This document shows, one piece after another, positions 4,049-63,098 of a DNA stretch of 64,000 nucleotides. Every line of letters begins with the position of its first letter. Within the stretch, counting starts at the first letter, position 1. The position numbers and the translations under genes were made by a program. The notes beneath the pieces are model-generated. The model did no database searches, had not been told where the DNA came from, and worked only from the letters and a program-made list of their open reading frames with translations. The DNA comes from a virus. Lineage: Duplodnaviria > Caudoviricetes. The DNA lies in IMG/VR virus record IMGVR_UViG_3300021256_000066, positions 1-64,000 of that record; one strand, given 5' to 3'.

Positions 4049-4083
4049 TGTCCCAAAACGAAAACAAGGTTTTTATATCTTTG
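4049..4083 (+). promoter_or_regulatory. Putative phage late promoter (TGTCCC-N21-TATCTTTG)
   Basis: Motif recurs about 13 times in the window. Confidence 0.65.
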
Positions 4084-8456: not shown

Positions 8457-9684
8457 ATGAAACTGACATTCAAGAATCTGCTCCGCGACCTCTATGTGGC
8501 ACTTGCCGACGCCCGCCGCCACAAGCGCAGGATGTCGTATGTCAGGAAGTTCCATCTGGCGCTGAAGACGAATATCATGCTGCTGTGCATGGCGCTATGG
8601 CTGCGCTCCTATGCGCCGCTGCCGTCGAAGTGCTTCATCGTGGACCGTCCGAAGAAGCGGGAGATCTACGCCGCGCAGTTTCCCGGACAGGATAGTGCAT
8701 CACCTCTACTACAACTACACGCACGAGCTCTACGAGGCGACGTTCATACGCGACTCGTACTCCTGCATCAAGAATCGCGGCACGCTCGACGGTGTGCTGC
8801 GCCTCTCGGAGCATATCCGCAAGGAGTCGCAGAACTGGACGCGGGAATGCTATGTGCTGAAACTCGACATACGAGGGTATTTTATGCACATCAACAGGCA
8901 GCGTCTGTTGGAGATATGTCTCGATACGCTGTCGAAGATGGCCACGCACAAGATGCCGAAGCACCTGCGGCACGGCAACGTGGTGACGTGGGAACAGGCG
9001 CTGGACATGGACTTCGTGAGGTGGCTCACGGAAGTCATCGTCATGCTCAACCCGCGCGACAACTGCATCATCTGCGGCAGCGAGGCGGACTGGATAGGAC
9101 TCGATCCGGCCAAGTCGATGCGGTGGCTGGAGGAAGGACTCGGACTGCCCATCGGCAACCTGACGAGCCAGCTGTTCTCGAACGTCTATCTCAACGTGCT
9201 CGACCAGTTCATGAAGCGGGTATTGAAATGCCGTCACTACGGCAGGTACGTGGACGACTTCTTCGTCGTGAGCTGCGACCGCGAGTGGCTGCTGTCGCTG
9301 GTGCCACGCATCAGACGGTTCCTGAAGGTGGAACTTGGTCTCGACCTGCACATGGGCAAGGTGCGCATCTGCCGTGCCAGTCAGGGCGTGGAGTTCCTAG
9401 GGGCCTACATCAAGCCATTCCGCATCTACACCTCGAACGCCACGAAGGAGCGGATACTGCAGAACCTGTCGGAGATGGACTTCACCGACCGCGAGGCGGT
9501 AGGCAGGACGGTCAACTCCTACCTGGGCATCATGTCGAAGACCGCCTCCTACAACCTGCGCCGGGAGTTGTTCTTCCGCAAGGAGTTCCTGCGCATAGGC
9601 TCGTTCGACGAGCGGATGACGAAGTTCACGCCGCACGGCCATCGTACCAGGCGGCTGCATAGACATCAACAACACCATTTATAA
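8457..9684 (+). CDS. DGR reverse transcriptase, split by a +1 frameshift at TTTCCC (8679..8684)
   Basis: N-part MKLTFKNLL..PKKREIYAAQF is in the frame of 8457. C-part PDRIVHH, LKLDIRGYF, GLPIGNLTSQLFSNVYL (DGR-type IGxxxSQ) and YVDD is in the frame of ORF 8611..9684. Confidence 0.92.
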
Positions 9685-10271: not shown

Positions 10272-10772
10272 ATGATAGCGATGACTATTCTTTCTATCCT
10301 CTTGGCGGTGGCCTTCGCGGGCGCCGCCATCTGGAGACTGAAGGCCCTGCCCGACAGCATCTCTGCGATGGTGTATGCGCTGCCCGAGGGCGGCTGGAGG
10401 TGGCTGTGGTCGGCATGGCTCGTCCTGGTGGGCATACTGACCTTTGCCCCCGTCGTGGAGATACTCGACGGGCGCGGGCTTGGCATCCTCGGCTTCCTGC
10501 CGATGGCGATGCTGATGTTCGTGGCTGTATGGCCTATCTTCGACCGTGAACACTACCGATGGCATAATATCCTCAGTACCGCGGTCGCCGTCATCAGCCA
10601 GGTAGATATATGGTTCATCTGCCCATACTGGCTCCTCTTGTGGCTGTTGATGGTGGCCGCTGTGTTCATGAAAGGCTTATGTCATACAGGAACTTACTTC
10701 GGCGGCAAGGGCATACTCATCGCCGAGGTTGTATGCTATGTCGTACTGATATTGGCAGCGTCATTCGGTTAG
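10272..10772 (+). CDS. Multi-pass membrane protein
   Basis: 166 aa with about 5 hydrophobic segments. Confidence 0.7.
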   Translation: MIAMTILSILLAVAFAGAAIWRLKALPDSISAMVYALPEGGWRWLWSAWLVLVGILTFAPVVEILDGRGLGILGFLPMAMLMFVAVWPIFDREHYRWHNILSTAVAVISQVDIWFICPYWLLLWLLMVAAVFMKGLCHTGTYFGGKGILIAEVVCYVVLILAASFG

Positions 10773-10893
10773 AAAAGAAAAAAAAGAAAGTCCCCGCCGG
10801 CCATTCATTATTTTTGGCGATTTAATGAATGTATTACCAGGCCGACGAGGGACTATAAATCCTTGTTGGTAATACATTATAATATAAATCGCC
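10773..10893 (-). ncRNA. Candidate structured small RNA
   Basis: Minus-strand TATTTTTG box at 10898..10905, nested long stems and a terminal U-rich tail. Confidence 0.4.
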
Positions 10894-10894
10894 G

Positions 10895-11176
10895 ATGCAA
10901 AAATACAACAAAAATAAAGAAAACAGTCCTCAAGATTGCGGATTAACTGTTTATTCTGCCCTAAAACTTAATATAAATCAAGTAAAAATGATGTCAGATT
11001 ATGACATCCCGCCACATTATTACAAGTACATCCCGCTTTTCGAGAATTACATTGATTTACGGGCTCACGGCTATAAGATGGCTTACATTTTAACCAAGCT
11101 CGTAGAGGACTACAACGTCAGCGAAAGTACCGTAAAGCGTGTAATAAAGGCACTTTCGCAAAGGGTCACGTTGTGA
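10895..11176 (+). CDS. Small helix-turn-helix protein (start uncertain, possibly 10988)
   Basis: C-terminal LVEDYNVSESTVKRVIK HTH pattern. Confidence 0.6.
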   Translation: MQKYNKNKENSPQDCGLTVYSALKLNINQVKMMSDYDIPPHYYKYIPLFENYIDLRAHGYKMAYILTKLVEDYNVSESTVKRVIKALSQRVTL

Positions 11177-11197
11177 ACCTTTGTTCGTGCTGAAATT

Positions 11198-11229
11198 TTT
11201 GGAGTCTAAGTTTTTTGTGGGTAAATTTG
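11198..11229 (+). promoter_or_regulatory. Host-type (sigmaA) promoter TTTG...TAAATTTG
   Basis: Matches the Bacteroidota -33/-7 consensus upstream of the 11.3-15 kb operon. Confidence 0.55.
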
Positions 11230-11299
11230 CGGTGGATATCCGAAAGGATTTCCGCTACAATTCACTTTATTTATTAACAACACAAAAAACATCAAGATT

Positions 11300-11869
11300 A
11301 TGGCATTAGAGATGAATGATTTGATGATGCTCCGTGGGATGGACTCCAAGGAAGGTCTGTCGCCCTATGAGCAGGTGAAGCTCGACCACATGACTGCACG
11401 CAACCACACCAGTGGTATCGGAGTTGCAGGACTTGTTCTCGGTACTGTTGGCACGGCAGTTGGCGTAGGCGCATGGCTGTTTGGTGGTATGTACGGCAAT
11501 GCCAAGGCCAACCAGGCCAAGGAGGTTGCTCTCGCCGCCAAGGAGATTGCAACCCTGCAGAACGGTGCAACGCAGCGCCAACTCGATCAGTTGACACAGC
11601 TGTTTGCCGCTGAGCGTCAGGAGCGCATCGCTGGCGACCAGACCATCACGCAGACTGTCACCGACACCGTAAGCGGTAGCCAGTCTGGTCAGTTGACCGC
11701 TCTCCAGCAGGCAGAGCTTGCCGCTTCGCAGGCTACGCAGCAGGTGATGACGCAAGCCTATAGCGACTTCGTCACTGGTCGCGCAAGCCTGAATCCGACT
11801 CCCGTCAGCCTGTACTCGGCTCCACAGCCTTGTGCTTGTCCTGCCAGCGGTTGCGGTTGCGGTGCGTAA
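11300..11869 (+). CDS. Hypothetical protein: Gly-rich hydrophobic segment, coiled coil, Cys-rich tail
   Basis: GIGVAGLVLGTVGTAVGVG; ends CACPASGCGCGA. Confidence 0.8.
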   Translation: MALEMNDLMMLRGMDSKEGLSPYEQVKLDHMTARNHTSGIGVAGLVLGTVGTAVGVGAWLFGGMYGNAKANQAKEVALAAKEIATLQNGATQRQLDQLTQLFAAERQERIAGDQTITQTVTDTVSGSQSGQLTALQQAELAASQATQQVMTQAYSDFVTGRASLNPTPVSLYSAPQPCACPASGCGCGA

Positions 11870-11878
11870 AGGTTTCTT

Positions 11879-11912
11879 GTAGGCGGCGGTTTTGCCGCTG
11901 CCTACTTCCTTT
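11879..11912 (+). terminator. Hairpin (terminator or processing site)
   Basis: GTAGGCGGCGG-TTTT-GCCGCTGCCTAC followed by a pyrimidine run. Confidence 0.45.
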
Positions 11913-11935
11913 CCCAAATTTCACGGCAATATGAT

Positions 11936-12301
11936 ATGTTTGGATATGGTAAACGAAAACGACGTATGCAGATGGTACAACAGGGATTAAGGGCGACGAG
12001 CAAGAGCAGTCTGAAACTGCAATGTCTCTTCTGTGCAAAGGGCGACCTGAAGGAGGCGAAGGAACTTTATGACTTCTTTGCAAGCGACATGCCCGACCTG
12101 CCCGACCAAGACCCCGTGCCGCCCACTTGGCAGCAGAACACGGCACAGACCATCAACGGTATCATGGACTGGGTGAAGGAGAACCAGGGGACGCTGGCGC
12201 AGGCTTACGACTTCATAGCGGGCATCGTCAGAAAGCGGGGCATACCGCCAACGGCTGCGCCCGAACCGCCTGCCGCACCGCTGCCGCCCATCAATCAGTA
12301 A
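11936..12301 (+). CDS. Hypothetical protein with Pro-rich C-terminus
   Basis: 121-aa ORF in operon. Confidence 0.7.
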   Translation: MFGYGKRKRRMQMVQQGLRATSKSSLKLQCLFCAKGDLKEAKELYDFFASDMPDLPDQDPVPPTWQQNTAQTINGIMDWVKENQGTLAQAYDFIAGIVRKRGIPPTAAPEPPAAPLPPINQ

Positions 12302-12319
12302 CAACTAATTCACGGCATT

Positions 12320-12562
12320 ATGAATGAACAGAATCAACAGCAGGGGCAGGAGACGCCGCTCGGCGTGTACCCCATCAGTTTTGAGATTTATGCGCACAGT
12401 CCGCAGGAGGCTGAGGACGCTCGTATGGCTATCATTGCTTTCATCGGCCTGCATGCCCGGCAGGGTCGGGCGGTCACGGGCGAGAAAATCGCCAAGGCCG
12501 TCGCCAACTGGGACAAGAACCCGATTGTAAGGTCAAAAGTTATCCGATACTTTGAAGAGTAG
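12320..12562 (+). CDS. Hypothetical protein
   Basis: 80-aa ORF, CATT-ATG start. Confidence 0.7.
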   Translation: MNEQNQQQGQETPLGVYPISFEIYAHSPQEAEDARMAIIAFIGLHARQGRAVTGEKIAKAVANWDKNPIVRSKVIRYFEE

Positions 12563-12629
12563 AAAGAATTGGAAAGTATTGGCAATATTTGCAAAGAATA
12601 GTAAGAATTATCAAGAAATAGCAAGGATT

Positions 12630-12956
12630 ATGGAACAGAATCAGAATCAGCAGAGCGGGCAGTTCAAGTGTCCAGGCAACTGTCTGCAGTGCCTGCCCGC
12701 ACAACGCCAGTATTGTGCTTCGCAGCACGCCTACTCGAACATGAAGGTGCTCGACAAAATCATGGAGACGCTGCTCGGCATGAAGAGTCAGATAGACGCG
12801 ATGCAGGGCACCGTCGGCGAACTATCGGCGAGGATCGAGGCTATCCAGAACGGCGAGGCTGCCGTGTTCGACCCCAATGGCGAGGGCGAGCTCTTCCCGA
12901 AGGAGTTTGCCGTATCGGAGCCAGCAACCGATGCACCTGCAGAGGCTGCGAAATAA
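12630..12956 (+). CDS. Hypothetical protein with CxxxCxxC...C cluster and coiled coil
   Basis: GATT-ATG at 12630; KCPGNCLQCLPAQRQYC. Confidence 0.7.
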   Translation: MEQNQNQQSGQFKCPGNCLQCLPAQRQYCASQHAYSNMKVLDKIMETLLGMKSQIDAMQGTVGELSARIEAIQNGEAAVFDPNGEGELFPKEFAVSEPATDAPAEAAK

Positions 12957-13075
12957 GCCCTGGGAAGTTGGTCTGTCAACTTACCTGGTGACGGTTTATC
13001 GACAAGATACAGCGCAATAAGGGTAGCGGCGCATCCAAAGGCTCCCAAGATAATCAACACAAAAACTAAAGTATT

Positions 13076-13549
13076 ATGGCAAACTGTAACTGCAAGAACG
13101 GACAGGACGTACTCGACTTCCTGACTTCCGTACCAGGCGGCACCGCTGCCAACGCAACGTATCAACTGGGACTGACCCACTACACCTGTGGAAACCGAAA
13201 GATGCTTGTGGCTGACCCGACGCATCCCGTCATCTCGCAGCTGACGGCCACGCCTGTAGGCTCGCCCATCGACCTGGGCAACGGGACCTTCTGCCAGGAG
13301 TGCCAGATTGCGGGCACCGTCACCTACAAGCCCTGCAACTCGTGCTCGCCTCAGACCGAGTATGTCAGCCAGCGCGTCTGCCTGCCGTGCTCGTCGGCCG
13401 TGTCGCCCACGCTCGCCATCGGCACGGTGGCCGCCTCGCCCAAGCCCATCACGTATTATCAGAACAACGGCTGCGGATGCTGCCAGGGTACTTACCCATG
13501 CACCAACCGCATCGCCATCACCACGTCGATTAACGTGACAACGGCATGA
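13076..13549 (+). CDS. Cysteine-rich beta-strand protein
   Basis: 157 aa; CNC, CQEC, CNSC, CLPC and GCGCC motifs. Confidence 0.8.
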   Translation: MANCNCKNGQDVLDFLTSVPGGTAANATYQLGLTHYTCGNRKMLVADPTHPVISQLTATPVGSPIDLGNGTFCQECQIAGTVTYKPCNSCSPQTEYVSQRVCLPCSSAVSPTLAIGTVAASPKPITYYQNNGCGCCQGTYPCTNRIAITTSINVTTA

Positions 13550-13917
13550 ACTGGCCCGACGTACTGATGATTGTCTTCTCTGCGACGGCCGCCAACCATC
13601 TCGGTCTGGTGGCTGCCGCAGAGAGCGTCGTCCGTCACCGTCTGCCAGTCCTGAACTGTCCCAAGTGCGCGGCGTTCTGGAGCGTGATAGTGTACGGAGT
13701 GGCGGTAGCAAATTTTTCACTGTTCACTCTTCACTTTTCACTCCAAATCCTCGCCGTCGCCTTTCTCTCCTCATGGTCAGCCGTCTGGCTCGACCTTCTT
13801 ATGGGAATTATCGACCAACTATACATAAAGCTCTATGACAAGATTTATCCAACAACAGATACCACCGACGCCGATGCGCTCGATACCGCAGACCCCGTGT
13901 CCGATGTGTCCGAGTAG
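13546..13917 (+). CDS. Membrane protein with CPxC..W motif (DUF1360-like)
   Basis: ATGA overlap with the upstream gene; LNCPKCAAFW followed by hydrophobic helices. Confidence 0.65.
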   Translation: MNWPDVLMIVFSATAANHLGLVAAAESVVRHRLPVLNCPKCAAFWSVIVYGVAVANFSLFTLHFSLQILAVAFLSSWSAVWLDLLMGIIDQLYIKLYDKIYPTTDTTDADALDTADPVSDVSE

Positions 13918-14008
13918 CGTCCAGTCTGCTGTGCCACAGCAGCCAAAATCCGAAACAATATCGGAAAAGGCACCGAAACCGATGCCTAAACGTCAAAATA
14001 AGAAATAA
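13835..14008 (+). CDS. Possible 57-aa Pro-rich peptide (MTRFIQQQ...CPMCP...)
   Basis: Open frame with a CxxC motif overlapping the low-complexity tail of the previous gene. Confidence 0.35.
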   Translation: MTRFIQQQIPPTPMRSIPQTPCPMCPSSVQSAVPQQPKSETISEKAPKPMPKRQNKK

Positions 14009-14044
14009 AAATCGCCGATTTTTGCTTATTTCGACGAAAACGTA

Positions 14045-14130
14045 AAAATAAGCAGGTTCTGGCGTGCTTAATGTATCACCAAATAAGAAAATAAGCAGGT
14101 TCTGGCGTGCTTAATGTATCACCAAATAAG
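14045..14130 (+). repeat. Perfect 43-bp tandem duplication
   Basis: AAAATAAGCAGGTTCTGGCGTGCTTAATGTATCACCAAATAAG twice (14045..14087, 14088..14130). Confidence 0.95.
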
Positions 14131-14138
14131 AAAATAAG

Positions 14139-14642
14139 ATGACAACACCACAAGAAATGAAGGAGCGTTATATGAGTCTGTACGACTACATGGCGCAGAG
14201 CCGCGACCCGAAGAATATGAAAGCCTTCGGTTGCGTGATGACAGAGATGATGGACTACCTCGTGGCCAACAAGCCAGACGTAGCCGAAGAGATGATCGAC
14301 AAATTGGAGGCAATCAAGTGGCACCAGTATCTCACCCCGAAGGAAGCGGAGAAGATTGTCGCCGGTATGGAACCGAAAGCACCGTGGAGTCGCGAGGTGT
14401 GGAAGAACGCTATGGAGTCGTTCGGACTGCCACTGGAGGAGATGCCAGCCTACAACCGCTGCGCCCTCTGGGTGGAGATGAACAAGATCTACTCCGACTT
14501 CGGCGAAGAGATTGCCGCCATGCTCGGCAAACCGCTGTCAGCATCCGACAAGGATATCATCTCAGCCTGCTACAAGATGGCGCTGAAGAACCTGAAGGAT
14601 AAGGACGGTATATACGACATCCGCAAGTACTTCCTTTGGTAG
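14139..14642 (+). CDS. Helical hypothetical phage protein
   Basis: 167-aa ORF with normal codon usage. Confidence 0.8.
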   Translation: MTTPQEMKERYMSLYDYMAQSRDPKNMKAFGCVMTEMMDYLVANKPDVAEEMIDKLEAIKWHQYLTPKEAEKIVAGMEPKAPWSREVWKNAMESFGLPLEEMPAYNRCALWVEMNKIYSDFGEEIAAMLGKPLSASDKDIISACYKMALKNLKDKDGIYDIRKYFLW

Positions 14643-14684
14643 GTCAAAGTAGGTCAGAGAAGGTCAAAGTAGGTTAAGTTTTGT

Positions 14685-14972
14685 ATGGACTATACCGCTG
14701 CTGCTGATGCACTGATGCGTCGTAAACTCCTGGAGGAAATGTACGACCGCATGACCGACGAGGAGAAGCGCATCTTCGCCATGATGACCATGCAGAACAA
14801 GAGCAACGACGAGATCCTGCGGGCTATTCAGCAGAACCAGCAGCATCTGCAGCGCCTCGTGGAGCACACAGACCGTGACCAGTGGTACAAAGCCTTCGGC
14901 TCCGACGTGGCCGCCAACGTGCTCACCACCTCTGCCTTCTGGCTCCTCGGCAAGCTCTTCGCCAAGCGATAA
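14685..14972 (+). CDS. Hypothetical protein with amphipathic C-terminus
   Basis: 95 aa; ends FGSDVAANVLTTSAFWLLGKLF. Confidence 0.75.
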   Translation: MDYTAAADALMRRKLLEEMYDRMTDEEKRIFAMMTMQNKSNDEILRAIQQNQQHLQRLVEHTDRDQWYKAFGSDVAANVLTTSAFWLLGKLFAKR

Positions 14973-15228
14973 AACTATCCATTCGATATCGCCGTGAATG
15001 GTCGGCGAAGACAGATGACCCGTAAAGGTTGTTTGTCTTCGCCTTTGTCGTTATAAAAACGAAAGTTAATCCGTCTCCTAAAAGAAGTTAAATATAGCGG
15101 TATTCGAAGCGCCCCTTGTGATAGCGAAAAAAATGCCCCCAAAAACAGCCTTTTTCTCATTATCTTTGCAGTGACAAAACAAGAGAATTGCTATCTTCAC
15201 ATACATTATAATATATAAGGAGCAAGAT

Positions 15229-15944: not shown

Positions 15945-16039
15945 GCTCGCTTACTCGCGACTCTGACCTGCGGTCGAAATTGCTCACGCTCGGAAATGCT
16001 GATGCGAGCATCGCATTTTGCTCGCTTACTCGCAATTTT
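15945..16039 (-). repeat. GCGAG...CCGAG palindromic repeat element (copy 1 of 5)
   Basis: Same architecture at 43152, 53228, 58887 and 60806. Confidence 0.6.
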
Positions 16040-16071
16040 GCCCTAAAATCGGCTTTTGTGGGCGAAAAAGT

Positions 16072-16104
16072 TGTCCCGAAGAAAACACACGTACTATACC
16101 TTTG
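16072..16104 (+). promoter_or_regulatory. Putative phage late promoter (TGTCCC-N19-TACCTTTG)
   Basis: Recurrent motif. Confidence 0.6.
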
Positions 16105-16161
16105 CCGATGTGGACGCGACGAGCCACGACAGCAAAAATTAAAAATCGAAAAATCAGATTT

Positions 16162-17928
16162 ATGAACGGAACATTTGAAATCTTCACGAATAAGGAATGG
16201 ATGATATTGCCATTGTTTGTGCATGGCATCCTCCCTACCGTGATGAACAATGCCAACAACCACACGATGCTCGGCATCGACCGCGAGAAGAAGAACCCGA
16301 TGTGCATCAATGCCAGCGGCGATGACATCTTCCGCGAGTATGAGGTGACGGATGACGGACAGGTGCTCCCCGTTTACGATGGTTGGAACGGCATCGACTA
16401 TCTGCGCGACCTGAAGCAGCCGTTTGTGAACGTCATCCCCATCGACGGACCGATTACCCGCAATGGCGGTGCCTGCTCTTATGGTTCAAAGGATATCCGC
16501 GACTGGATGATGAAGGCCAGCGACAATCCATACTGCCAGTGTCACGTGCTGGTGATCAACACCCCTGGCGGCAGCGCTTGGGCTAAGAACGACTTCCAGC
16601 AGGCTATCGACTACGCCCACTCGAAGGGTCAGCGCGTCATCGCCTTCATCGACGGACTTTGCGCATCGGCTGGCATGTATCTCGCTTCGCTCTGCGACGA
16701 GGTGTATGTGATGAACCTGAAAGACCAGCTGGGCTGCGTAGGCGTGATGGCCTCGTTCTTCACGATGAAGAGCGGCGACAAGAACGAGTTCACGGGCGAG
16801 ACCTACCGCGAATACTACGCCACCAAGAGCATTAATAAGAATAAGGAGATACGCGACATCGCCGAGGACGACGACGCCACGCTGCTCATCGAAGAGCTCG
16901 ACCAGTTGGAGGCTGAGTTCCGTGCCGACATGAAGGCCGCGTTCCCCAATGCCAAGGACGAGCACCTTGACGGCAAGATGTTCGACGCCAAGGACGTGAT
17001 GGGCATCCTGTGCGACGGACAGATGATGCTCGGCGACGTGATTGCCCGTGGCTTCGCCCTCGCCGACGGAACGGCACAGCCCATCGCCCGCACCGCCAAT
17101 CGCAAGATAGCCAAGCGTCAGCAGACGGCAGGTCGCGGCACGACAGCAGCCAAGCAGACAATCGTCGGCAACGGTGCATCGGCTTCCGTCCGCATGACCG
17201 CCGCACAGGCCAAGGAGAATGTTTTATCACCAACAAATAACAGTATCAACATGAAAGAGAATTATCCCGCAGTGTTTGCGCTTCTCGGAGTCGAGGAGAT
17301 GCAACTTTCAGAGGAGGGCACTTTCTTCAACAAGGATCTGCTCGCCACGCTGAACAGCGCCATTGAGGCGAAGAACAAGGAGATGGCTGACGCGAAGGCT
17401 CTGGCCGATCAGCTGACCTCAGAGAAGAACGAGTTGACCGCTCAGATTGAGACGCTGAACGCCGACCACCAGAAGGCCATCGACGACCTAAAGGCTGAGC
17501 ACGCGACGGCCATCGAGGAGAAGGACAACCAGATTTCTGCCCTGGAGCAGGAGAAGGCCGACCTCGCAGCCGCCGCCACCACGAAGGACGAGGAAATCGC
17601 CACGCTGAAGGCCGACGCAGAGGGCAAGGCTTCACAGATTGAGCAGCTGACCACCGACCTGAACGGTGCGAAGGAGAGTCTGACCACCGCCGAGGGCACG
17701 ATTGCCGAGCGCGACCAGACCATCAGTGACCTGAACGCCCAGATTGCCGAACTGCAGCACGACCCAGGACAGGGCGCACAGGCAGGTGCAGCCCCGCAGA
17801 ACAACGGTGGCGGCGCGGAAGCCCCACAGGTAGTAGTGAATCGCTATGTTTATAACCGCGAGCTCTCAGCCGAAGAGAACTGGAAGCTGGAAGAGCAGTG
17901 GAACAAGGATCACGGCATTGAGAAGTAG
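16162..17928 (+). CDS. S49 (SppA/ClpP-like) prohead protease fused to a coiled-coil scaffold
   Basis: INTPGG, FIDGLCASAGMYLAS and GCVGV S49 motifs; long C-terminal coiled coil; directly upstream of the capsid gene. Confidence 0.88.
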   Translation: MNGTFEIFTNKEWMILPLFVHGILPTVMNNANNHTMLGIDREKKNPMCINASGDDIFREYEVTDDGQVLPVYDGWNGIDYLRDLKQPFVNVIPIDGPITRNGGACSYGSKDIRDWMMKASDNPYCQCHVLVINTPGGSAWAKNDFQQAIDYAHSKGQRVIAFIDGLCASAGMYLASLCDEVYVMNLKDQLGCVGVMASFFTMKSGDKNEFTGETYREYYATKSINKNKEIRDIAEDDDATLLIEELDQLEAEFRADMKAAFPNAKDEHLDGKMFDAKDVMGILCDGQMMLGDVIARGFALADGTAQPIARTANRKIAKRQQTAGRGTTAAKQTIVGNGASASVRMTAAQAKENVLSPTNNSINMKENYPAVFALLGVEEMQLSEEGTFFNKDLLATLNSAIEAKNKEMADAKALADQLTSEKNELTAQIETLNADHQKAIDDLKAEHATAIEEKDNQISALEQEKADLAAAATTKDEEIATLKADAEGKASQIEQLTTDLNGAKESLTTAEGTIAERDQTISDLNAQIAELQHDPGQGAQAGAAPQNNGGGAEAPQVVVNRYVYNRELSAEENWKLEEQWNKDHGIEK

Positions 17929-17993
17929 CAGTCCCCAGCCAACACAGAAAACTCATAAATAACATTAATTATTCACCAACACATTTAAGAACT

Positions 17994-19250
17994 ATGGCAG
18001 AATTAAAGTTCATCGGTATCGACAATGTGGTAAACATTGCCAACCAGTTGGAGCCCAACATCATCATGGGTCCCGCGTACTACAAGAAGAGTGACCTGGA
18101 GCGCTTTGGCATCAAGGTGCTGACAGGCGTACAGTTCAAGAAGACCGCTATGGTGCTCAGCCGCAAGGGTGGTACCAGCCGTCGCAAGAAGGTGGGCGTT
18201 CATCAGGAGTCCAAGCTCGGATATTTGATGGAGCGTGAGCTTGTCGCTCATCAGGTCTGGAATCGCTTCAAGCATAATGAGGACGAGTTTCAGGAGAAAC
18301 CCATCGCCATCGAGGGTAGCGCGAAGTTCCATTATCCCCTCGCCGAGGAGTTCATCACCGAAATTGGTAAGGAGTTCTCTGACGACGTTTATGCTTGCAT
18401 GTTCCACGGTGACGACGAGAGCGATGACGTGCAGCTGAACCTCTACAGCGGCTACCACACGCTTATCAACCGCGACATGGCCAAGGGTCTTATCTCAGAG
18501 GCCAACGGCAACCTGATCCCCTGCGCAGTGCTCGACGCTCCGCAGAGCGAGGGCGACAGCCAGGCTTGGGACGAGTTCGTGAAGTGGCACGACAAGTGGC
18601 CTTCAGTGCTGCAGGATGCAGACAAGGTGCTCGTGTATTGCTCCGTAGAGTACGGTAACAACATCAGCGATGCCTACGAGCAGAAGCACCGCTCGCTGAA
18701 GTCGGCAAAGTACCTCGACAACGGCAACTTCGTGATTGACCGCTACAAGAACATCGAGTTCGTTCCCTCTGCACGCTGGGGTAATGGCACCCGCATGGTG
18801 GCCACTCTGCCTCAGAACTTCGAGTTCGGCGTGAACAGCGAGGGCCAGGAGTCGTTCGTAGCAGTCCAGCATGGCAGCGACGACGATGTAAAAGATATCA
18901 TTTTCCAGATCCAGGGTATCTACGGATGCCGTATCAAGGACGTCCTGAAGCGTGCGTTTGTCACCAACGGCGGAACCATCGAGGGAACCTTCGAGCGCGG
19001 CGACTACGAGAAGGATGCCGTCATCGCCATCCCTAACGACAAGGAGCTCGGCACAGTGACCATCAAGAACGGTGAGACACCCGTAGAGAGCGGCACTGAG
19101 GTGGCCAAGGGCGTGACCCTGACGCTGACCGCTACGCCGAAGACCGGCAAGAAGTTCGTGAAGTGGAGCAACGGCTCGACCGCCAACCCGACCAGCATCG
19201 TGACCACGGGCGATCCTATCGCCATCGTCGGTATCTTCTCGGGGGAATAA
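17994..19250 (+). CDS. Major capsid protein with C-terminal small beta (InlB-B/Ig-like) domain
   Basis: Follows the protease/scaffold gene; strongly biased codons; LTATP..G..FVKWS.G tail domain. Confidence 0.75.
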   Translation: MAELKFIGIDNVVNIANQLEPNIIMGPAYYKKSDLERFGIKVLTGVQFKKTAMVLSRKGGTSRRKKVGVHQESKLGYLMERELVAHQVWNRFKHNEDEFQEKPIAIEGSAKFHYPLAEEFITEIGKEFSDDVYACMFHGDDESDDVQLNLYSGYHTLINRDMAKGLISEANGNLIPCAVLDAPQSEGDSQAWDEFVKWHDKWPSVLQDADKVLVYCSVEYGNNISDAYEQKHRSLKSAKYLDNGNFVIDRYKNIEFVPSARWGNGTRMVATLPQNFEFGVNSEGQESFVAVQHGSDDDVKDIIFQIQGIYGCRIKDVLKRAFVTNGGTIEGTFERGDYEKDAVIAIPNDKELGTVTIKNGETPVESGTEVAKGVTLTLTATPKTGKKFVKWSNGSTANPTSIVTTGDPIAIVGIFSGE

Positions 19251-31509: not shown

Positions 31510-31592
31510 CAAAGATAGTGTCTTTTGTGCACGAATTGGGACAAGCGAATTTGCCTATGTCCCAACTTAGCACGATTGCGGTATTAACTTTG
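31510..31592. promoter_or_regulatory. Divergent pair of TGTCCC-N20/21-TAnnTTTG promoters
   Basis: Minus 31510..31543, plus 31558..31592. Confidence 0.7.
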
Positions 31593-37227: not shown

Positions 37228-37262
37228 TGTCCCATTTTCCAATGGTCGCGACATTAATTTTG
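37228..37262 (+). promoter_or_regulatory. Putative phage late promoter (TGTCCC-N21-TAATTTTG)
   Basis: Recurrent motif. Confidence 0.65.
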
Positions 37263-60917: not shown

Positions 60918-61670
60918 ATGGGAATGATGACTTATCGCGAGGGATCACGCGGGCCGGTTGTGGCAATGATCCAGAAGGCCGTCGGATGTTACCCCGATTC
61001 TATATGGGGTAAACTCACGACGGAGGCTCTGAAGGCATGGCAGCGGGCTCACGGGCTGACGGCTGACGGCATCGCGGGGCCGAGGACGCTGGCGGCTATG
61101 GGTATCGAGGCAATGACTCCGAAGGGCGACGGCCTGCATATAGGTCCTGACTCGGTGGTGAGCAGCTATGGCGGCAAGGCTGTCAGGCTGAAGCGGTCGC
61201 GGCGCAGGATTGACTATATCGCGGTGCATTGCACGGCGACGCCGGAGGGCAGGGACATGACCGTGGAGCAGATCCGAAAGCAGCACAAGGCGCAGGGCTG
61301 GTCAGACGTGGGCTATCATTATTTAATATATAGGGACGGCACGGTGCATCTGGGGCGTGACGTGGATATCAGCGGGGCGCACGTCTCTGGCTACAACGCA
61401 AACTCTATCGGCATCGCGTATGTCGGCGGCTTGGAGAACCGTCCAGGCGTGGCGTATAATAAGCTGAAGGCGAAGGACACGCGGACGGAGGCACAGAAGG
61501 CCTCGCTCATGGCGCTGCTGGCAGACTTGCGCAAGCTATACCCGAAGGCCGTGATTCAGGGGCACCGCGACTTCTCGCCCGACAAAAACCACGACGGCGT
61601 AATCTCGCCCGACGAGTGGGTGAAGGACTGTCCGTCGTTCGCAGCTAAATCCGAATATCGCAATATCTGA
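60918..61670 (+). CDS. Endolysin: peptidoglycan-binding domain plus N-acetylmuramoyl-L-alanine amidase (Amidase_2, T7-lysozyme-like)
   Basis: WQRAHGLTADGIAGPRT; IAVHCTAT, GYHYLI, GAHVSGYN, GHRD and CPSF motifs. Confidence 0.92.
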   Translation: MGMMTYREGSRGPVVAMIQKAVGCYPDSIWGKLTTEALKAWQRAHGLTADGIAGPRTLAAMGIEAMTPKGDGLHIGPDSVVSSYGGKAVRLKRSRRRIDYIAVHCTATPEGRDMTVEQIRKQHKAQGWSDVGYHYLIYRDGTVHLGRDVDISGAHVSGYNANSIGIAYVGGLENRPGVAYNKLKAKDTRTEAQKASLMALLADLRKLYPKAVIQGHRDFSPDKNHDGVISPDEWVKDCPSFAAKSEYRNI

Positions 61671-62657: not shown

Positions 62658-63098
62658 ATGAAAAAGAATTTGTTTTTTGTGTGTATGATGGTGGCCATGA
62701 TGGCCGCAAGTGTAGGACTGGGCGGCTGCTCGAAGAGTGACAGCGACAATGTAATCCCAGGCGGATATGTGGGAACATGGACGTGTGACGAATATTGTCC
62801 ATCCGACAACATGAACCTGGAGGTGGCAATGTATGAGGAGGACGGTTGGCCCCCGACTACGGTGACAATCAACGGTGACGGATCATGCAGCGGCAGCGGA
62901 CTGGTAATCAACGGCAACGGCACGTGCTCCATCAAAACTGGGAACAAATGGGAGGACGGCTATTGGGCGATTATTACCTTCTACCAGAACGGCAAGATGG
63001 TGAGCACGGCGACGGTGAAAACCTATACAAACGACCACAGAACTGGCTATGTGGCACTGCAGGGATATCCGGACAAGTTATTCATCTTTACCAAATGA
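62658..63098 (+). CDS. Lipoprotein
   Basis: Signal peptide with LGG-C lipobox followed by SKSDSD (Bacteroidota surface-export-like signal). Confidence 0.8.
   Translation: MKKNLFFVCMMVAMMAASVGLGGCSKSDSDNVIPGGYVGTWTCDEYCPSDNMNLEVAMYEEDGWPPTTVTINGDGSCSGSGLVINGNGTCSIKTGNKWEDGYWAIITFYQNGKMVSTATVKTYTNDHRTGYVALQGYPDKLFIFTK

Follow-up and report, generated by a model that had tools for sequence, protein, structure and literature searches.

The first 64,000 nucleotides of the phage genome IMGVR_UViG_3300021256_000066 (hereafter the window; the genome measures 129,506 bp and is 100% complete according to CheckV) carry, at positions 10895-14972, a block of ten genes, A to J, all in the same orientation. 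This block is a self-contained unit with its own host-type promoter and a strong terminator of its own (15004-15043), and the order of genes B to J is conserved among related loci far beyond chance. The cassette's one family link, through the DUF7841 protein I, leads to the lysis regions of crAssphage and its relatives, and this recurrent link to lysis cassettes is new: it was absent from the first-pass annotation, made from the window sequence alone. We tentatively favour, while stopping short of calling it probable, the reading that B to J form an exchangeable accessory module acting at the host envelope, most probably in or on the lysis pathway, with A as a likely regulator. What the sequences show directly is the anatomy of the block, its conservation, its promoter and terminator, and its association with lysis genes in the genomes; the membrane topology, the binding of metal and a part in lysis are deduced.

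Anatomy and conservation of the gene block

The first-pass annotation had described a helix-turn-helix (HTH) gene followed by eight or nine co-oriented genes lying between the tail and head modules, and this description was borne out. Gene A, likely the regulator heading the cassette, is followed by nine genes; diversity-generating retroelement (DGR) and tail-fibre genes lie on one side (reverse transcriptase at 8611-9684), protease-scaffold and major capsid genes on the other (16018-19250). The block was also rightly said to use a host-type rather than a GTCCC-type promoter. An exact match to the Bacteroidetes consensus (Table 1) stands 70 nt before B and is followed by an A-rich leader; the full consensus occurs at 8 sites in the window against 0.7 expected, and the remaining ones cluster in the low-GC early region at about 44-46 kb. 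Most related loci keep the -7 box, some 65-100 nt before B, and the leader TTATTAACAACACAAAAAC. The late motif GTCCC(A)-N20-21-TAnnTTTG was found at 10 sites against 0.17 expected, between window positions 4050 and 37262, where it precedes structural genes (for instance at 16073-16104, 31559-31592 and 37229-37262). Our motif scan of the window detected no such promoter inside B-J, and the copy at 10790, 5' of A, has an atypically short spacer.

Conservation of the neighbourhood, which had been suggested as a check on the block, was confirmed: the order B-C-D-E-F-G-(H)-I-J is strictly kept in 19 distinct IMG/VR contigs, at 35-98% identity. Orthologues of C were recovered in 19/19 loci and in the cultured Bacteroides phage BS162P1 (host B. 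salyersiae), D gave a tblastn match in 19/19 loci and one in BS162P1, and B is directly preceded by a homologue of A in 12/19 loci as well as in two further ones (L030 and L038). The same gene order is found in rumen contigs from metagenome-assembled genomes (MAGs) binned as Prevotellaceae, Bacteroidaceae and Bacteroidales, on the whole 82,463-bp contig of the isolate Prevotella sp. tc2-28 (L038 / L017, NZ_FNRE01000014.1), and in BS162P1, where gene sizes and motifs match and every gene is annotated 'hypothetical'. The cassette is common to many rumen and gut Bacteroidota phages. A blastn search of cultured phages with the block returned nothing, and our literature search found no paper mentioning BS162P1 or DUF7841.

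The surroundings of the block vary. Its head module can be downstream, upstream or inverted relative to it, and the accompanying major capsid proteins are 23% to 87% identical to that of the window. Seven relatives (91-100% complete, capsid about 40% identical) have no I, no B and no DUF7841 protein of any kind, in searches where positive controls matched with the same search or settings; we could reject on this basis a strict core-gene reading of the block. In two loci (L054 and L055) the corresponding site, flanked by the DGR-linked gene and the head genes, holds two unrelated genes. By comparison of these genomes, the block travels as a unit and is patchy, mobile and accessory-like.

Phage morons have their own promoter and terminator inside the late region, as in the case of HK97 gp15. 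The block is likewise an autonomous transcription unit, variably present among related phages and inserted between structural modules, and the part of the earlier moron proposal that concerned its accessory nature stands; the coat, inclusion or redox-buffer function attached to it is unsupported. It differs from the morons in consisting of ten genes kept in strict order across deep divergence. Lysogenic conversion is unlikely since the phage has no integrase (a search of the genome for a tyrosine integrase found none).

DUF7841 and the association with lysis genes

When the ten block proteins were searched against Pfam, PHROGs and NCBIfam, matches were obtained only for A (phrog_17790) and for I, the latter to DUF7841 (PF25223, 5.6e-12 in the genome search). 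Matches in the ESM atlas were viral 'hypothetical' clusters only. A divergent DUF7841 protein, from a Flavobacteriales MAG (G396), was matched by tblastn in 47 records of cultured or assembled phages, most of them crAss-like; gp58 of p-crAssphage is among the matches, and the I and gp58 families align with an hhalign probability of 95% (E 2e-8).

The neighbours of DUF7841 in these phages are lysis genes in several instances. In the Suoliviridae crAss-like phages cr1_1, cr10_1 and cr6_1, a Phage_holin_4_1 gene (6e-11, 3.6e-10 and 1.4e-4, respectively) is followed by a homologue of crAss001 gp27 ('lysis regulatory protein') and then by DUF7841; a few genes on, cr1_1 and cr10_1 encode a 'transpeptidase catalytic domain protein', which we read as a DUF5675-type endolysin. 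The order in the Flavobacteriales MAG, a prophage remnant, is holin, DUF5675, DUF7841. One Alistipes MAG prophage (L120) ends with tail genes, an endolysin (phrog_315, 8e-42), a protease and HicAB, after which come a B-like protein, one of 152 aa, an F-like protein and DUF7841, the host miaA gene standing next; the F-like protein aligns with the F family at an hhalign probability of 85% (E 6.4e-6). This presence of DUF7841 in the lysis cassettes of independent lineages supports a role in lysis or at the envelope. The last four genes of this Alistipes prophage (B-like, 152-aa, F-like, DUF7841), at 15532-18374 of L120, form a reduced version of the block, 2.6 kb 3' of the prophage endolysin.

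Another arrangement is found in p-crAssphage, cr106_1, cr3_1 and BF1-TP2, where a gp61-type protein is followed by two small proteins and then by DUF7841. The gp61-type proteins are built like B: a Gly-zipper transmembrane (TM) segment follows an N-terminal segment and precedes a long helical region, and the C-terminus has the pattern N..P.V..Y..PCxCP. The set (gp61-gp58 in p-crAssphage and cr106_1) fills the slot between tail-fibre and capsid genes, which in crAss001 is occupied by gp27, gp28 (holin/lysis regulator), gp29 and gp30 (DUF5675). The block occupies this same slot in its own genome, shares the DUF7841 protein with the crAss-like modules, and has in B a counterpart of their small TM proteins with a long helical domain (crAss001 gp28, crAssphage gp61). 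It differs from them in having no Pfam holin, DUF5675 endolysin or gp27-like protein, in adding five Cys-cluster proteins (B, E, F, G and H), and in its promoter, which is host-type and not late.

We considered B as a member of the gp61 family and rejected this, as the hhalign match (E ~1e-4) is carried by the TM segment and not by the whole length. The hhalign comparisons of every block family with crAss gp57, gp59, gp60 and gp61, crAss001 gp27-29 and the Suoliviridae holins likewise gave TM-segment matches only, I against gp58 being the sole exception. Furthermore, a hidden Markov model (HMM) search of 1.84 billion proteins with B yielded no gp61-sized matches. The p-crAssphage protein KP06_gp61 itself (L043, 3030-3803; homologues in L045-L048 and L051), with its Gly-zipper TM, long helical region and Cys-containing C-terminus, is labelled 'putative tail protein'; this label is probably wrong, since it is a TM protein encoded beside DUF7841. 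As for crAss001 gp29 ('hypothetical'; L052, 26039-26407), it matches Pfam Head_fiber_dimeric at 3.6e-33, so that the crAss001 lysis cluster is interrupted by a structural gene.

The tail label of the gp61 family would suit a reading of the block products as virion or morphogenesis proteins (Cys-rich decoration, internal or assembly proteins), as would the position of the block between tail-fibre/DGR and capsid genes and the confident beta-sandwich model of F. However, there is no late promoter inside the block, three of its members are predicted membrane proteins, complete relatives with homologous head genes lack it, and the gp61 label comes from unverified annotation, the protein having a TM segment and a long helical domain. 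Moreover, no structural Pfam or PHROG match was found in the block, and none of its genes maps to a known virion protein in Pfam, PHROGs or NCBIfam, in line with the first-pass annotation. We hold a virion role to be very unlikely.

Where, then, are the lysis genes of the window genome itself? Among the families searched, its only endolysin candidate is the peptidoglycan-binding/Amidase_2 protein at 60918-61670, which stands at a distance from the structural genes, has no recognised holin gene near it, and is possibly the functional partner of the block; family searches of the genome found no Phage_holin_4_1, DUF5675, Phage_lysozyme or Peptidase_M15_4. Having an amidase and none of the searched holins or other endolysins elsewhere is in favour of a lysis function for the block. 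In L020, a 63-kb relative with direct terminal repeats that is 100% complete, J is directly followed by Phage_holin_4_1, a peptidoglycan-binding/Amidase_2 endolysin 51% identical to that of the window, and a gp27-like protein with an N-terminal TM segment, and a holin homologue (5e-19) is encoded 1.3 kb 5' of A in two other loci, L005 and L006; these adjacencies support the lysis reading. So does the distribution of Phage_holin_4_1, which is present in 7/7 block-less near-complete relatives and absent from 8/10 block-bearing genomes at least 85% complete, the window genome included (one-sided exact probability ~0.002 by our own arithmetic, not corrected for shared ancestry). A clean model in which the block replaces the holin was rejected, as L020 and G424 carry both, adjacent to each other in L020.

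Several points weigh against a role in lysis. Accessory genes unrelated to lysis often adjoin lysis genes, and we know of no precedent in lysis for Cys-rich cytoplasmic beta proteins. The anticorrelation of holin and block may reflect only one or two evolutionary events. The full set of holin, endolysin and gp27-like protein in L020 indicates that the block is not simply the canonical lysis trio, and in the window genome the endolysin is 46 kb away from the block. There seems to be no o-spanin partner, because no block open reading frame (ORF) combines a signal peptide with a lipobox when read by eye. The likeness of B to crAssphage gp61 and crAss001 gp28 appears, from the alignments, to be one of architecture only, together with the gp61 C-terminal pattern. 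Finally, the promoter is host-type, an unusual choice for lysis genes; a review (PMC10136315) places those of crAss-like phages, spanin and holin families included, together with the structural genes in a single late unit.

These points leave room for an accessory moron-type envelope module unrelated to lysis. Such a module would be expressed early from the host-type promoter and would change the membrane of the infected cell, for instance in the service of superinfection exclusion, a block of DNA entry, host takeover, or defence or counter-defence; it would lie near lysis genes only because accessory genes gather there. The promoter and terminator of the block, its association with such divergent capsid genes in variable position and orientation, its absence from the seven near-complete relatives and from the syntenic site of L054 and L055, and its three membrane proteins are all in line with this, and early expression in a lytic cycle is plausible because no integrase was found. 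Nevertheless, nine genes in strict order down to about 30% identity exceed by far the needs of known exclusion systems; fast turnover is usual in counter-defence genes, whereas the block genes are collinear in every locus; and DUF7841 stands between holin and endolysin-type gene, or directly after them, in several lineages. We regard an envelope module outside lysis as rather unlikely, though it is the alternative to take most seriously.

Membrane and cysteine-cluster proteins of the block

Table 1. Features of the block and the candidate endolysin of the window genome.
Feature	Position	Strand	Basis or description
A, small HTH protein, 93 aa	10895..11176	+	phrog_17790 8.5e-12; weak HTH_11/DeoR/GntR matches at C-terminus
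Host-type Bacteroidetes promoter, TTTG-N20-TAAATTTG (-33 TTTG, -7 TAAATTTG)	11198..11229	+	exact consensus match
B, predicted bitopic membrane protein	11300..11869	+	conserved 38-aa N-terminus, Gly-zipper TM, long helical region read as coiled coil, C-terminal NPxPV..Y..PCxCPxxGCGC
GC-rich hairpin after B, possible attenuator	11879..11905	+	12-bp stem, 8 GC pairs, T/C-rich tail
C, soluble 121-aa protein	11936..12301	+	basic N-terminus, conserved LPPIN(E/Q) C-terminus; no family match
D, soluble 80-aa protein	12320..12562	+	no family match
E, 108-aa protein, CPGNCLQC...C	12630..12956	+	Cys4 cluster C-x3-C-x2-C-x7..14-C, then helical region read as coiled coil
F, all-beta 157-aa protein, exactly 13 Cys	13076..13549	+	no family match
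G, 123-aa predicted membrane protein, about 3 TM segments, CPKCAAFW, acidic C-terminal tail	13546..13917	+	alignment and hydropathy
H, 57-aa cationic peptide, net about +7, CPxC (CPMCP) and poly-Lys tail	13835..14008	+	overlaps 3' end of G in another frame
Perfect 43-nt tandem duplication, 2.2 copies, directly 5' of I start codon	14045..14138	+	TRF score 188, 100% matches
I, 167-aa all-alpha DUF7841 protein	14139..14642	+	PF25223 E 6.7e-11, 42.9 bits against cut-off 25.2
J, 95-aa helical protein, conserved hydrophobic/amphipathic C-terminal helix	14685..14972	+	orthologues in 17/19 loci
Intrinsic-terminator-like hairpin closing the operon	15004..15052	+	17-bp stem, then TTTGTCGTT, T-rich tail
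Endolysin candidate, peptidoglycan-binding and Amidase_2	60918..61670	+	PF01510 9.4e-19; 46 kb from block

The individual proteins picked out by the first-pass annotation could all be recognised: the Gly-rich hydrophobic protein is B, the CxxxCxxC protein with a helical region read as coiled coil is E, the 157-aa protein credited with about 13 Cys is F, and the CPxC..W membrane protein and the CPMCP peptide are G and H, respectively.

B has a single hydrophobic Gly-zipper segment (hydropathy peak at residues 40-58), the charges flanking it being ambiguous for a type II topology, and it ends in CACPASGCGCGA. Its C-terminus holds four Cys, and P166, V169, C180, C185 and C187 are invariant in 20 sequences. 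The family comprises 106 clusters at 50% identity among the 1.84 billion proteins of the HMM search, all of about 150-200 aa; a tblastn search with B found no match. In λ, Rz uses intermolecular disulfides, and B has C-terminal cysteines. B also resembles the two-component spanins (λ Rz/Rz1; PMC6139136) in its N-terminal TM segment followed by a long helical region read as coiled coil. It differs from them in the conserved 38-aa segment preceding the TM segment and in the lack of an embedded or adjacent o-spanin lipoprotein gene.

G shows hydropathy peaks near residues 6-24, 42-64 and 64-86, and its invariant residues are N17, H18, the C38-x2-C41 pair and W45; the positively charged loop that precedes the motif suggests that the CxxC faces the cytoplasm. 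Its family is large (at least 1,611 clusters at 90% identity in metagenomes), and a homologue search gave, among the matches listed, 120 close and unnamed relatives, of no help with remote homology. In size and topology G corresponds to a holin (about 60-150 aa, at least one TM segment, a charged hydrophilic C-terminus), and it can be compared with the class I holins of the λ S105 type, which share its small size, its TM count of about three and its charged C-terminal tail. Unlike the holins, it belongs to no such sequence family (neither G nor any other block protein matched a holin family of Pfam or PHROGs), and in the window genome it is not adjacent to the endolysin gene. To our knowledge, the invariant NH...CxxC..W signature of G is present in no described holin. 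The holin-like build of G (123 aa, about three TM segments, charged tail), together with the construction of B along the lines of crAss001 gp28 and crAssphage gp61, nevertheless supports the lysis reading.

The other two small products at the 3' end of the block are H and J. An H-equivalent ORF is present at the G/I junction in 19/19 related loci, either with CPxC ahead of a Lys tail or with a Lys-rich N-terminus ahead of ...RCPGC; both arrangements keep the CPxC motif and a strongly Lys-rich stretch, and by this conservation H is a real gene. The C-terminal segment of J falls below the strict TM threshold in the hydropathy scan, and this helix is possibly a tail anchor.

Among the soluble proteins, E carries four Cys (C14, C18, C21 and C29) that are invariant in 19 sequences, and its true start is 12630, not 12552. 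In F, 7 Cys are invariant and 2 near-invariant in the alignment of homologues. The proposed inspection of predicted structures revealed no known fold. The AlphaFold2 model of F, an all-beta sandwich, is confident (pLDDT 89, pTM 0.81), as is that of I (pLDDT 90.5). For I, Foldseek against the PDB and VIA wide returned helical hairpins only and no convincing fold. For F, Foldseek against the PDB, BFVD and VIA wide gave no Foldseek match and nothing decisive, the best VIA matches (Z 5.3) being to CS/alpha-crystallin sandwiches of small heat-shock proteins, within the noise range for such searches. Searches of PDB sequences with the F and I profiles gave nothing useful.

Conserved Cys clusters are thus found in five of the ten products (B, E, F, G and H). 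C, D, E, F, H and I have no hydrophobic, signal-like N-terminal segment in a hydropathy scan and reading, no signal-peptide predictor having been run. Because the soluble members lack such a segment, we infer that their clusters are probably cytoplasmic metal sites, not disulfide cross-links; metal sites are probably the better explanation throughout, provided that the cytoplasmic location of the soluble proteins and of the G CxxC holds.

This speaks against the function first proposed for the block, a disulfide- or metal-cross-linked protective coat or inclusion comparable to spore-coat gene sets, or a metal/redox buffer. The five Cys-cluster products are compatible with it, and so are a few leads to sporulation families. 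For F, the ESM-atlas feature neighbours include Bacillota clusters with CryBP1 and SipL/DUF3794, at a score of only 0.88. For G, the suggested DUF1360 (PF07098) matched 2/20 homologues with a best E of about 1, below the gathering threshold, and one atlas cluster at 0.89 has 14% DUF1360 members, a lead only. Both sporulation links turned out weak. DUF3794/SipL matched 0/20 F homologues at E up to 10, no Pfam spore-coat family matched them either, and the fold searches with F returned nothing above Z 5.3 and no chain of the DUF3794/SipL type, a family for which solved structures may be lacking. Export is unlikely as no member has a signal-like N-terminal segment, and cytoplasmic disulfides are unlikely in hosts that are strict anaerobes. 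In addition, the 13 Cys of F are set within a defined fold of 157 aa, unlike those of a metallothionein-type buffer. A coat, inclusion or buffer is to our mind the least probable of the readings considered, and barely credible.

How could the module take part in lysis? Host RNA polymerase would transcribe it from its own promoter. B (bitopic, with its coiled-coil-like domain), G (three segments, holin-like in size and topology) and J (possibly tail-anchored) could form an inner-membrane complex, on which C, D, E, F, H and I, presumably cytoplasmic, would dock. The conserved Cys pairs and quartets of B, E, F, G and H would be metal sites, probably for zinc, acting as a subunit clasp or as a thiol switch. 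The complex would then time or assist the disruption of membrane and envelope, allowing the Amidase_2 endolysin to act. In phages without a recognisable holin, as here, G or J might itself be the hole-former, and the cationic peptide H might act on the outer membrane; both suggestions are speculative. Lysis-timing systems with several small membrane and cytoplasmic partners, as in the block, are known in the antiholin systems T4 RI/RIII, P1 LydB and P2 LysA.

A more specific version of this scheme would have the block encode a previously undescribed multi-subunit machine at the Bacteroidota inner membrane. Shared Cys/metal sites would hold the subunits together, with CxxC half-sites contributed by G and H, the Cys4 by E and Cys clusters by B and F, and the whole would serve as a switch, gated by thiols or metal, for the disruption of the envelope or the timing of lysis. 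In crAssphage and Alistipes prophages it would exist in a reduced form (B-like, F-like, DUF7841). In this full form we find the scheme unlikely.

Lysis by Bacteroides and Prevotella phages, including the very abundant crAss-like phages, is poorly understood, and most of their holins and spanin-type proteins owe their assignment to annotation alone. The cassette is widespread (G alone accounts for more than 1,600 clusters at 90% identity) and contains, in F and I, two confident orphan folds. If it does control or execute envelope disruption, it would provide new lysis proteins for a major gut phylum, and functions for several conserved crAssphage genes (gp58-gp61), now 'hypothetical' or 'tail'. 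Its role is directly testable, because cultured BS162P1 and the Prevotella isolate with a phage on its own 82-kb contig exist; that the phage fills the entire contig suggests that it is carried, or episomal, in the culture, and that it is a ready experimental system.

Further observations

The GTCCC(A) promoter class retains the host -7 box, with GTCCCA in place of the -33 TTTG. This arrangement suggests a phage factor that would redirect host RNA polymerase late in infection.

Inside the block, a GTAGGTCAAA x3.6 array is found at 14639-14674, just before J. This array and the 43-nt duplication before I could be internal regulatory sites or the product of recent slippage.

Just 5' of the cassette, 10272-10772 encodes a 166-aa polytopic membrane protein with 5-6 hydrophobic segments and no family, homologues of which lie near the block in several relatives at no fixed distance. 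Further away, the gene at 62658-63098 encodes the only lipoprotein that we noticed in the window (signal peptide ending LGGC).

Lastly, a 4,767-bp contig assigned to Chitinophaga silvisoli (L112, NZ_QTJV01000036.1) encodes proteins near-identical to p-crAssphage gp61-gp54, and looks like sequencing contamination rather than a Chitinophaga gene set.

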